A stretch of DNA of 64,000 bases from Escherichia coli. Lineage in GTDB: Bacteria > Pseudomonadota > Gammaproteobacteria > Enterobacterales > Enterobacteriaceae. The stretch lies in assembly GCF_003790525.1 (NCBI RefSeq), contig NZ_CP033635.1. One strand, given 5' to 3'. Within the stretch, counting starts at the first letter, position 1. Each line of letters starts with the position of its first letter. The position numbers are program-made. Positions 33,601-36,600 of the stretch are shown piece after piece.

Positions 33601-36600
33601 CTACAGAGAAAGACCCGAGTTAGGGGCTGGGATCAGAGGTTGTTCGTATGGTCGTTACCTTCTGCTGTTCAGGGTACTGGATACTGAAGTTCGTATCGAA
33701 CGTATCGTTCATGGTTCCCGGGATATCAACAGGGTACTTGCAGAGCCAGACGACAAACCATCAGATCATTTCTGGCAGCCATAAACAAAATCTGTGCGTT
33801 AACGCTCCCTAACACAGGTAGCCAGGTATTTTATAAATCTCTGTATTTTGTTGTCACTTCGATTCCGCGATTCAGCATATCGAACCAGACAAAATGATTA
33901 CAACAAACCACAAGAAAGAGGGATTATAGCGTCAAAAGAATTCGAATTGCACATGGGGGCCTCATTGGTGGCCTCAAAAAGAACAAGGATAAAACAGTCG
34001 ATACAAAACAATTGGTTATATAACCAGTTTCATTCCGAGTCCGGGCACCAAATTCATATAAACGGACCTCCACGGAGGTCCGTTTTTCGTTTCAGGACGC
34101 CACAATTTAAGCGTTCTCCCTAAAAATCATTTCTACCGAACTCAACCAGATTCTCCCCACAACACCAGCATTTTGCGGGTATATCCCAATTCGGGGAAAT
34201 GTGTTCCTGAGCGATAGCACTGACTGACGTGAAATGTCGTGCGGCCCCGTGATGCTGTTGAACGTCAAATGACGTCATCAGGAGCGTAACGCATCCATAA
34301 AGCACAACATCGGTCTGAACGCCGACTGATAAGATTTTCTGAATGAGAACAAAGAGAAATGTATCGGTCCACTTGCTCATGCAAAGACTAACAATCCATT
34401 AAAATAGTAAGCGCTCCGGACAACTTTCCATGGATTATTTTCTGCACATTTTTCTTTGGCAAAGATGATGAATTTTGATGGTAAGGAAAATTACTTCTGG
34501 TTCTCAGTAAAATCCTTTCGTAATACTATGTAATCAAGAAGTTTATGGCGGGTAAAAATAACGTCTTGCATTCACCAATAATATGTAAATAAACCCATCT
34601 ATAGATGGAAAAAATAGATTATGGCAATTATCATTGCATCATTCCCTTTTCGAATGAGTTTCTATTATGCAACAACCTGTAGTTCGCGTTGGCGAATGGC
34701 TTGTTACTCCGTCCATAAACCAAATTAGCCGCAATGGGCGTCAACTTACCCTTGAGCCGAGATTAATCGATCTTCTGGTTTTCTTTGCTCAACACAGTGG
34801 CGAAGTACTTAGCAGGGATGAACTTATCGATAATGTCTGGAAGAGAAGTATTGTCACCAATCACGTTGTGACGCAGAGTATCTCAGAACTACGTAAGTCA
34901 TTAAAAGATAATGATGAAGATAGTCCTGTCTATATCGCTACTGTACCAAAGCGCGGCTATAAATTAATGGTGCCGGTTATCTGGTACAGCGAAGAAGAGG
35001 GAGAGGAAATAATGCTATCTTCGCCTCCCCCTATACCAGAGGCGGTTCCTGCCACAGATTCTCCCTCCCACAGTCTTAACATTCAAAACACCACAGCGCC
35101 ACCTGAACAATCCCCAGTTAAAAGCAAACGATTCACTACCTTTTGGGTATGGTTTTTTTTCCTGTTGTCGTTAGGTATCTGTGTCGCACTGGTAGCGTTT
35201 TCAAGTCTTGAAACACGTCTTCCTATGAGCAAATCGCGTATTTTGCTCAATCCACGCGATATTGACATTAATATGGTTAATAAGAGTTGTAACAGCTGGA
35301 GTTCCCCGTATCAGCTCTCTTACGCGATAGGCGTGGGTGATTTGGTGGCGACATCACTTAACACCTTCTCCACCTTTATGGTGCATGACAAAATCAACTA
35401 CAACATTGATGAACCGAGCAGTTCCGGTAAAACATTATCTATTGCGTTTGTTAATCAGCGCCAATACCGTGCTCAACAATGCTTTATGTCGGTAAAATTG
35501 GTAGACAATGCAGATGGTTCAACCATGCTGGATAAACGTTATGTCATCACTAACGGTAATCAGCTGGCGATTCAAAATGATTTACTCCAGAGTTTATCAA
35601 AAGCGTTAAACCAACCGTGGCCACAACGAATGCAGGAGACGCTCCAGCAAATTTTGCCGCATCGTGGTGCGTTATTAACTAATTTTTATCAGGCTCATGA
35701 TTATTTACTGCATGGCGATGATAAATCATTGAATCGTGCCAGTGAATTATTAGGTGAGATTGTTCAATCATCCCCAGAATTTACCTACGCGAGAGCAGAA
35801 AAAGCATTAGTTGATATCGTGCGCCATTCTCAACATCCTTTAGATGAAAAACAATTAGCAGCACTGAATACAGAAATAGATAACATTGTTACACTGCCGG
35901 AATTGAATAACCTGTCCATTATATATCAAATAAAAGCGGTCAGTGCTCTGGTAAAAGGTAAAACAGATGAGTCTTACCAGGCGATAAATACTGGCATTGA
36001 TCTTGAAATGTCCTGGCTAAATTATGTGTTGCTTGGCAAGGTTTATGAAATGAAGGGGATGAACCGGGAAGCAGCTGATGCATATCTCACCGCCTTTAAT
36101 TTACGCCCAGGGGCAAACACCCTTTACTGGATTGAAAATGGTATATTCCAGACTTCTGTTCCTTATGTTGTACCTTATCTCGACAAATTTCTCGCTTCAG
36201 AATAAGTAACTCCCGGGTTGATTTATGCTCGGGAATATTTGTTGTTGAGTTTTTGTATGTTCCTGTTGGTATAATATGTTGCGGCAATTTATTTGCCGCA
36301 TAATTTTTATTACATAAATTTAACCAGAAAATATTCCGTAATCCATTGTAAACATTGAATGTTTATCTTTTCATGATATCAACTTGCGATCCTGATGTGT
36401 TAATAAAAAACCTCAAGTTCTCACTTACAGAAACTTTTGTGTTATTTCACCTAATCTTTAGGATTAATCCTTTTTTCGTGAGTATTCTTAGCGCCAGTTT
36501 GGTCTGGTCAGGAAATAGTTATACATCATGACCCGGACTCCAAATTCAAAAATGAAATTAGGAGAAGAGCATGAGTTCTGCCAAGAAGATCGGGCTATTT

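Follow-up and report, generated by a model that had tools for sequence, protein, structure and literature searches.

The integrase of the satellite phage P4 integrates into the 3′ end of a tRNA gene (leuX). CP4-57 is a cryptic prophage of E. coli K-12 that is located at ssrA and contains intA, alpA, yfjI, yfjJ and so on to yfjZ/ypjF, and the AlpA family supplies excision/directionality factors in CP4-57 and related islands. For the GI-pheV islands two classes of attR were described, a 23-bp class, TTCGATTCCGAGTCCGG-CACCA, and a 19-bp class, TTTCATTCCGATTCCGGGCACCA, an imperfect repeat found with intP4.1, the attR of which carries a G-to-T change; the alleles intP4.1-4.5 differ by 4-6% at the nucleotide level (PMC11537424). 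In the chromosome of the E. coli ST167 strain Sanji, a "69.2-kb insertion" was reported that carries an 8.9-kb sul2-strAB-tetRA-floR cluster, rafRABDY, relE/parE as well as yeeV/yeeU, and that was also found in six other genomes (PMC6392093). The main text of that paper contains no mention of pheU, tRNA-Phe, an integrase or a direct repeat (PMC6392093).

The window analyzed here, a stretch of 64 kb of E. coli DNA, contains a large part of the same element, as the size, the resistance cluster, the raf operon and the two toxin-antitoxin systems agree. The core flank of the element in Sanji is K-12-like, whereas that of the window represents a different background. A 19-mer in the window, ATTCCGAGTCCGGGCACCA, is very probably the attR core of an island of ∼69.3 kb that was integrated into the 3′ end of the tRNA-Phe gene pheU by a P4-like integrase of 394 amino acids (Int394). 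The features around this boundary are as follows.

1-34031, unstranded: right ∼34 kb of the 69.26-kb pheU-integrated genomic island; collinear with island DNA of strains XDL and Sanji, absent from the pheU-cadC region of K-12
33860-34031, + strand: conserved non-coding right-end arm, putatively the P′ arm of attR, with 97-99% conservation across three Int394 islands
34032-34050, + strand: attR core, exact 19-bp tRNA-Phe 3′ end; site at which the pheU and pheV copies of the island pass into different flanks
34051-34183, + strand: sequence that follows pheU in K-12, including a hairpin; homologous to the intergenic region between tRNA and int in intP4 (420/421 aa) islands
34214-34404, + strand: fossil, frameshifted gene for an intP4-type integrase of 420 aa, reduced to the first ∼11 and last ∼62 codons by a deletion of codons ∼12-358
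34667-36205, + strand: cadC, first core gene to the right of the pheU locus (512-aa open reading frame; annotation and synteny with K-12)

Within the 64-kb window ATTCCGAGTCCGGGCACCA occurs a single time, on the plus strand at 34032-34050, where it repeats exactly the 3′-terminal 19 nt of the tRNA-Phe(GAA) gene as found intact in K-12, XDL and Sanji. The preceding four bases are TTTC in the window and TTCG in the tRNA gene, therefore the exact repeat is 19 bp long. The sequence TTTCATTCCGAGTCCGGGCACCA of the window belongs to the 19-bp attR class (TTTC followed by ATTCCGAnTCCGGGCACCA) and is a perfect copy. A preliminary description had taken the 19-mer for the 3′ end of tRNA-Phe, which is borne out by the identity to the intact genes and by the collinearity with the K-12 pheU-cadC region from 34032 rightward. 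It had also noted that an intact tRNA and an integrase are missing from the window. Indeed, no tRNA gene could be identified in the 64 kb by ARAGORN, an Rfam scan of the window at gathering thresholds returned no family, no intact integrase is present, and tblastn with Int394 against the whole window gave no match at E ≤ 1e-3.

The absence of the tRNA from the window itself is the sole point in favor of a chance match, a truncated tRNA pseudogene without a partner or an assembly artefact. Such an origin has hardly any probability left and is already refuted: the match is exact, whereas 0.03 matches would be expected by chance in shuffled sequence even with up to three mismatches, about 160 independent complete genomes share the junction, and the intact partner tRNA exists in XDL and Sanji. 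The 19-mer is a true recombination boundary, the standard attR of a tRNA-Phe island. Across the island and the window only two copies of the 19-mer were found when up to four mismatches were allowed, namely the end of the tRNA gene and 34032-34050. Tandem islands joined via internal att sites were considered and rejected, because no further copy appeared with up to 4-5 mismatches. A T-arm-like 10-mer, TTCGATTCCG, at 33858-33867 was likewise rejected as a decayed att site, because CFT073 has ACGATTCCAC instead, and it is treated as a coincidence or as the edge of the arm.

The far end of the island was located in XDL (NZ_CP043033.1) and Sanji (NZ_CP011061.1). Positions 2-36707 of the window differ from XDL by four substitutions and one indel over 36.7 kb, all within the island (99.99% identity), and positions 1-14000 and 12000-34100 have a rounded identity of 100.0% to Sanji. 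In XDL, an intact pheU is located at 4551510-4551585, adjoining dsbD-dicD, the gene for the tyrosine recombinase Int394 starts 176 bp downstream of pheU, and the second copy of the 19-mer ends 69,258 bp past the tRNA. The arrangement, the accession of the integrase protein and the length of 69,258 bp are the same in Sanji. In K-12 the gene order is dsbD-dicD-pheU-cadC with nothing inserted in between, and its pheU-cadC region, the empty site, corresponds to that of Sanji minus the island. An intact tRNA-Phe(GAA) gene is present at the left junction in XDL, Sanji and WCHEC4533, all of them close relatives of the window and not the window's own genome.

Because pheU and the integrase gene are found 69,258 bp upstream in near-identical genomes, positions 1-34050 of the window correspond to the right half of a 69.3-kb island. 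This agrees with the earlier proposal that everything up to 34050 is island DNA, which is absent from the K-12 locus, and the intact tRNA and integrase that had been anticipated at the far end were both found, in these relatives. In the window's own genome, the tRNA, the integrase gene and the left end would be expected 35.2 kb before the window start, as judged from relatives with 99.99% identity. The pheU-type junction was found in about 160 complete genomes.

In a three-way alignment of attB, attL and attR, attR follows K-12 from the 19-mer rightward, and attL follows K-12 through the tRNA gene and diverges directly after the CCA. Compared with K-12, the right flank has 5 differences in 31 kb in Sanji and 504 differing sites in 30 kb in the window. 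The window and Sanji are identical at 33928-34103 and differ for the first time at 34104, which is also the first difference between the window and K-12 and the first polymorphic core site past the repeat. Over 9.2 kb of left flank, 104 sites distinguish XDL from Sanji; the last is located 115 bp before the tRNA, and no difference is found in the tRNA itself. Identical island DNA meets two core backgrounds, and on the right the switch occurs within 54 bp of the repeat.

An alignment of the cadC-proximal flank with K-12, which had been suggested beforehand, was collinear from 34032 with an identity of ∼98.3%. Since the spacer, with 96% identity to K-12, seemed suspicious, it was considered whether flank DNA had been imported along with the island. 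This was rejected: the 30-kb right flank is uniformly ∼98.3% identical with no step, SMS-3-5 carries a spacer segment identical to that of the window, and strain E22 has a flank of 99.3% identity without the end of this island. Together these observations indicate that the divergence is plain strain background.

The same island is found at pheV in WCHEC4533, where yqgA and the kps capsule genes flank it; its integrase protein is identical, and the raf operon and ParDE are present as well. Its sequence matches that of the window without a difference as far as the core, beyond which the pheU flank is replaced by pheV's own (CTAATTCTTAAGAACCCGCC...). The right-hand flanks of the pheU and pheV copies have only the 19-bp core in common. 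This shared homology is too short for homologous recombination and fits exactly the prediction for a site-specific crossover. In the pheV-type carriers (29 genomes), the flank changes inside or at the core.

Homologous exchange has nevertheless left traces within the island: XDL and Sanji differ by 15 silent substitutions clustered in int, which indicates that it also shapes the left end. Together with a further cluster at 24.7-26.7 kb of the XDL locus (L002), these differences indicate that recombination has occurred within the island, and they would suit a scenario in which the repeat is a passive scar of one ancient integration and the island has been spread only by homologous recombination of the flanking core, by transduction or an Hfr-like process. 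The attP form was not found in the genome and metagenome collections searched, and published work stresses recombination within the modules of phe-tRNA islands, both of which would agree with such a scenario. However, cores that are 1.7% divergent meet the identical island within 54 bp to the right of the repeat and within 115 bp to the left of the tRNA, and a move between pheU and pheV offers only 19 bp of right-hand homology, too short for RecA-type exchange. Spread exclusively by flanking recombination is therefore considered very unlikely.

The gene content of the island part of the window was taken from the PGAP annotation of the identical stretch of XDL.

1-34031, unstranded: dGTPase-like gene, pap remnants, resistance module, IS relics, CP4-57-like genes, yee-like module and ParDE
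2608-11266, unstranded: resistance module with ISCR2 fragment, floR, tet(A)/tetR, aph(6)-Id, aph(3'')-Ib and sul2 (PGAP annotation of XDL), the "8.9-kb cluster" of the Sanji paper (PMC6392093)
15974-16210, - strand: AlpA-family helix-turn-helix protein of 78 aa, candidate excision/directionality factor (Pfam Phage_AlpA, PF05930, E 2.6e-10; weak match to the excisionase domain TIGR01764)
33198-33784, + strand: ParD/ParE toxin-antitoxin pair, the last genes of the island (TIGR02606, E 6e-28; RelE/StbE family; annotation)

The GC content across 1-34031 is mosaic and ranges from 36 to 62%. The fimbrial remnants comprise papA′, papB and papI-type genes, the IS relics belong to IS1, IS3 and IS110, the CP4-57-type genes encode YfjI, YfjJ and AlpA, and the yee-like module runs from a GTPase to CbtA/CbeA. 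The preliminary view of the island as a mosaic of fimbrial remnants, resistance genes, IS relics and a CP4-57-like backbone thus agrees in every component with the XDL annotation. In some relatives ISEcp1-blaCTX-M-55 is present as well. No relaxase or type IV secretion genes are annotated across the 69 kb in XDL or Sanji, which on the basis of the annotation indicates that the island is not an ICE.

With CP4-57 the island shares proteins of the AlpA and YfjI families, proteins with a YagK/YfjJ domain, a GTPase, an antirestriction protein, RadC and a toxin-antitoxin pair of the CbtA/CbeA type. It differs in being located at tRNA-Phe and not at ssrA, in the order and orientation of the yfj-like genes and in its much larger size and cargo, and the likeness is one of protein families only.

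Int394 contains the Pfam domains Arm-DNA-bind_3, a central domain and the catalytic Phage_integrase domain. All motifs of the R/K/HxxR/H/Y signature are present, as TGLR, the K in RKHVVPL, HGFRH, LAH and GTY, and the protein resembles the solved CP4-like and CPS-53 integrase domains. Like the P4 integrase, Int394 belongs to the tyrosine recombinases, has an arm-binding domain at its N terminus and is encoded beside a tRNA gene, and the core overlaps the 3′ end of the tRNA, so that the gene is regenerated. In contrast to P4, the island contains no P4 phage genes, and the match of Int394 to the NCBIfam domain model for P4-like integrases (3e-92, 309 bits) is below the cut-off of 434 bits. The protein identity of Int394 is 42.8% to the 421-aa integrase of CFT073 (Int421) and 42.3% to a 420-aa integrase at pheU (Int420). 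Int394 together with attL-proximal DNA was identified in 526 complete genomes, which makes the Int394 islands a sizeable, less-described sister family.

The right ends of two other Int394 islands share the arm, the perfect 19-mer and the spacer of the window, and both islands also have ParDE as their last genes. One, of 41.7 kb, carries genes for Dr/Afa adhesin and Ag43; the other, of 59.5 kb, carries sucrose-use genes, a class 1 integron and floR-sul2. Among the three islands the int genes are down to 95.7% identical.

The island resembles GI-pheV in its location at tRNA-Phe, the adjacent P4-like integrase gene, the mosaic modules including yee and an attR derived from the tRNA 3′ end. It differs in that it is found at pheU (and also at pheV) and carries resistance and raffinose-use genes instead of UPEC virulence genes. 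By sequence, the island appears to work like the GI-pheV type with the same core, and it falls outside the intP4.1-4.5 classes, with Int394 being only 42-43% identical.

Over the 172 bp that precede the core, the window and the right end of GI-pheV of CFT073 have an identity of ∼90%, the TTTC in front of the core included, and the genes beside the arm differ, with ParE in the window and an AbiEii pseudogene in CFT073. As the arm is common to islands with a 43%-identical integrase, Int394 may not be the integrase that acts on this attR. The contrast between an arm of ∼90% identity and integrases of 42-43% identity (Int394 versus Int420/421) leads to a different explanation, a chimeric island whose attR and right arm would derive from an older island of the intP4.1 (CFT073-like) type, in front of which the Int394 element was integrated before the internal junction was deleted. 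The 19-mer would then not have been made by Int394, which may be unable to use it. An extra integrase fragment inside the island, upstream of the window, and the IS relics that separate the modules are compatible with this. On the other hand, Int394 and the ParDE-terminated right end are paired in three islands with different cargo, and the entire 69-kb unit occurs at pheU as well as at pheV, with a flank that changes at the core, which requires that its two ends function together. Any fusion would have to predate the Int394 family, and the meaning of the 19-mer would be unchanged. A chimeric origin is thus regarded as unlikely, and integration of the complete island by Int394 is retained as the preferred reading.

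In the preferred reading, a circular island bearing a copy of the tRNA-Phe 3′ end would recombine with pheU. At the left junction (attL) this would yield an intact tRNA gene followed by int, and at the right junction the 19-bp copy would be joined to the DNA that formerly followed pheU, i.e., the hairpin, the deleted int and cadC. Int394 presumably catalyzed the integration, and the AlpA-like protein is a plausible assistant in excision. The predicted attP junction reads ...AACCAGTTTC-ATTCCGAGTCCGGGCACCA-CTTTCACTTCC..., and in the empty attB pheU is joined directly to AATTCATATAAACGG.... The attP junction, as expected for an excised circle or a tandem, was found neither in 5,426 complete E. 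coli genomes nor in one-per-species representatives or metagenome contigs, assemblies in which it is rarely captured. The intact parts suggest that the island may still be competent for excision today. After integration, pheU no longer has the spacer hairpin behind it, and no terminator-like hairpin or site was found between pheU and int394; read-through from pheU into int394 is possible.

The spacer between the repeat and cadC measures 616 bp both in the window and in K-12, which puts the earlier estimate of ∼617 bp right within 1 bp. A hairpin of 11 pairs at 34060-34085 (-18.4 kcal/mol, z = -5.8) starts nine bases past the repeat and is followed by a T run; the identical hairpin is found in K-12 behind the intact pheU. 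In strain 2014C-3061, pheU is followed by a full-length integrase of 420 aa, and positions 34032-34183 of the window, with the hairpin, are 89% identical to its pheU-to-int intergenic region (1219-1370 of that locus, L009). In CFT073, this hairpin-bearing sequence is found behind pheV, at the left end of GI-pheV; there it belongs to the island, and pheV's own flank differs from it. When the pheU integrase of 2014C-3061 was used for tblastn, amino acids 359-391 and 397-420 matched at 34248-34404 (E 9e-11) and amino acids 1-11 at 34214-34246. In the PGAP annotations of XDL, Sanji and K-12 alike, a frameshifted integrase pseudogene is located between the repeat and cadC, and the fossil is present in the spacer of at least 5225 of the 5,426 genomes. 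The K-12 pseudogene in the pheU-cadC spacer presumably corresponds to yjdQ; a literature search for "yjdQ" returned nothing.

A fossil derived from Int394 was considered and rejected, as the best tblastn match of Int394 in the spacer had E = 3.2 and the fossil matched the 420-aa intP4 type. An HMM scan of the crude frame-1 peptide of the spacer gave no match. Between the fossil and cadC no older attR was found, even when seven mismatches were allowed in the 23-mer.

Judged from these homologies, the pheU-cadC spacer derives by decay from the left end of an older island of the intP4 type, a fossil common to nearly all E. coli. The terminator hairpin, previously called native, is indeed present and identical in K-12, but it is native only in the sense of being ancient and near-universal, its origin being the left end of this older island. 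Two generations of phe-tRNA islands are found in tandem, in the order pheU, Int394 island, 19-bp attR, intP4-type fossil and cadC. The Int394 lineage and the intP4 lineage with integrases of 420/421 aa share the 19-bp core and ∼170 bp of right arm and stack at one locus. If both recognize the arm, they could cross-excise or fuse islands, a suggestion that is made tentatively and is rather doubtful. If true, cross-recognition would account for hybrid attR sites such as the GG-C variant at pheV, and for the way in which the modules of phe-tRNA islands are reshuffled.

The element has already been published as a 69.2-kb insertion, and the feature is an ordinary one. What is added here are the attachment site, the exact limits, the site-specific placement at pheU and pheV, the distinct integrase lineage and the fossil in the spacer, which are refinements and not discoveries, and the understanding of how such islands work is unchanged by these results. 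The K-12 pheU-cadC spacer should not be treated as pristine core DNA. A chromosomal multidrug-resistance island (floR, tetA, strAB, sul2) can now be assigned its exact limits and its attachment site. Roughly 3% of the complete E. coli genomes carry this island, inserted at either of two tRNA-Phe genes and in two core backgrounds at least, which points to site-specific mobility of chromosomal resistance and not to clonal inheritance alone.

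The spacer that separates pheU from cadC, which K-12 shares with almost every E. coli, is a fossil: it was once the left end of an intP4-type island, the type with a 420-aa integrase. The contents of the spacer are as follows.

Window 34051-34404: a hairpin followed by the first ~11 and the last ~62 integrase codons

Codons ~12-358 of the intP4-type integrase are deleted in the spacer. At the left end of the published CFT073 GI-pheV island, pheV is followed by the same hairpin sequence as is found in the spacer. Between pheU and int394, the gene for the 394-aa integrase of the present island, no terminator-like hairpin was found.

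The non-coding right end of the island (window 33860-34031, ~170 bp) is ~90% conserved across islands that have unlike adjacent genes and integrases with only 43% identity, and this segment is probably an att arm. It contains a GGGGGC..C..TGGTGG-like motif that is also present downstream of pheU at attL. Motifs resembling ACCGAACTC are repeated at window 34130-34150 and at 14587-14762 of L002, the XDL locus with pheU and the left part of the island. At the left ends of both the Int394 and the intP4 types, these motifs are located after tRNA-Phe and before int. They are candidates for int promoter elements or for arm-type sites bound by the integrase.

In WCHEC4533, where the same island is located at pheV, the attR core (L007 6813-6831) reads ATTCCGAGTCCGG-CACCA, which is one G less than in the window. 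This core combines a TTTC prefix from the island side with a GG-C variant that the published 23-bp attR class typically shows. The missing G could reflect crossing over with a degenerate site already resident there, slippage in the G-run or a homopolymer sequencing error.

Over 36.7 kb, the window differs from its near-identical relative XDL at only five positions: four are substitutions, and the other is a 1-bp indel located between the yfjJ-like and yfjI-like genes. The window is from a sibling genome of XDL and not from XDL.

Window 109, 18947, 19188, 23401 and 23406: positions differing from XDL

Among relatives of window 12000-34100 (LWY6, E14, VE-T2 and others), several carry an added ISEcp1-blaCTX-M-55 insertion in the island arm, and other relatives have an IS3 insertion in the same arm. 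Resistance genes are still being gained by this chromosomal island.

When XDL was compared with Sanji, 15 clustered substitutions were observed in int394 (L002 14951-15659), despite which both products are annotated under one protein accession. The remaining 34 kb of compared island contained only 10 differences, nine of which fall within L002 24755-26707. This cluster, against few differences elsewhere, suggests that the left end of the island has undergone gene conversion or recombination. The 3' 56% of int394 was also found on plasmids at 98% identity (174 places in total), including the Sanji plasmid NZ_CP011064.1, which hints that the Int394 island family and plasmids are exchanging DNA.

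The window starts within a gene of the dGTPase family (region covered: window 1-744 and L002 44000-49900), which has a thymidylate-synthase-like gene and a MazG-like gene as neighbours. Further to the left, there is a type I restriction-modification system that includes an AAA ATPase. Together, these genes may form an anti-phage defence block in the island.

The end of the pap remnants is directly abutted by an ISCR2 fragment, and a P-fimbrial operon appears to have been replaced or truncated by the resistance module. In strain 3985, a sister Int394 island at pheU carries a larger, different resistance module at the same position, and both modules share one sul2-side flank.

Window 1188-2680: pap remnants, with a truncated papA and papB-type and papI-type regulators
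L015 1-21000: strain 3985 module, with a class 1 integron carrying aadB-aadA1-sul1, a TnAs3-family transposase, floR, ISCR2, dfrA36 and sul2
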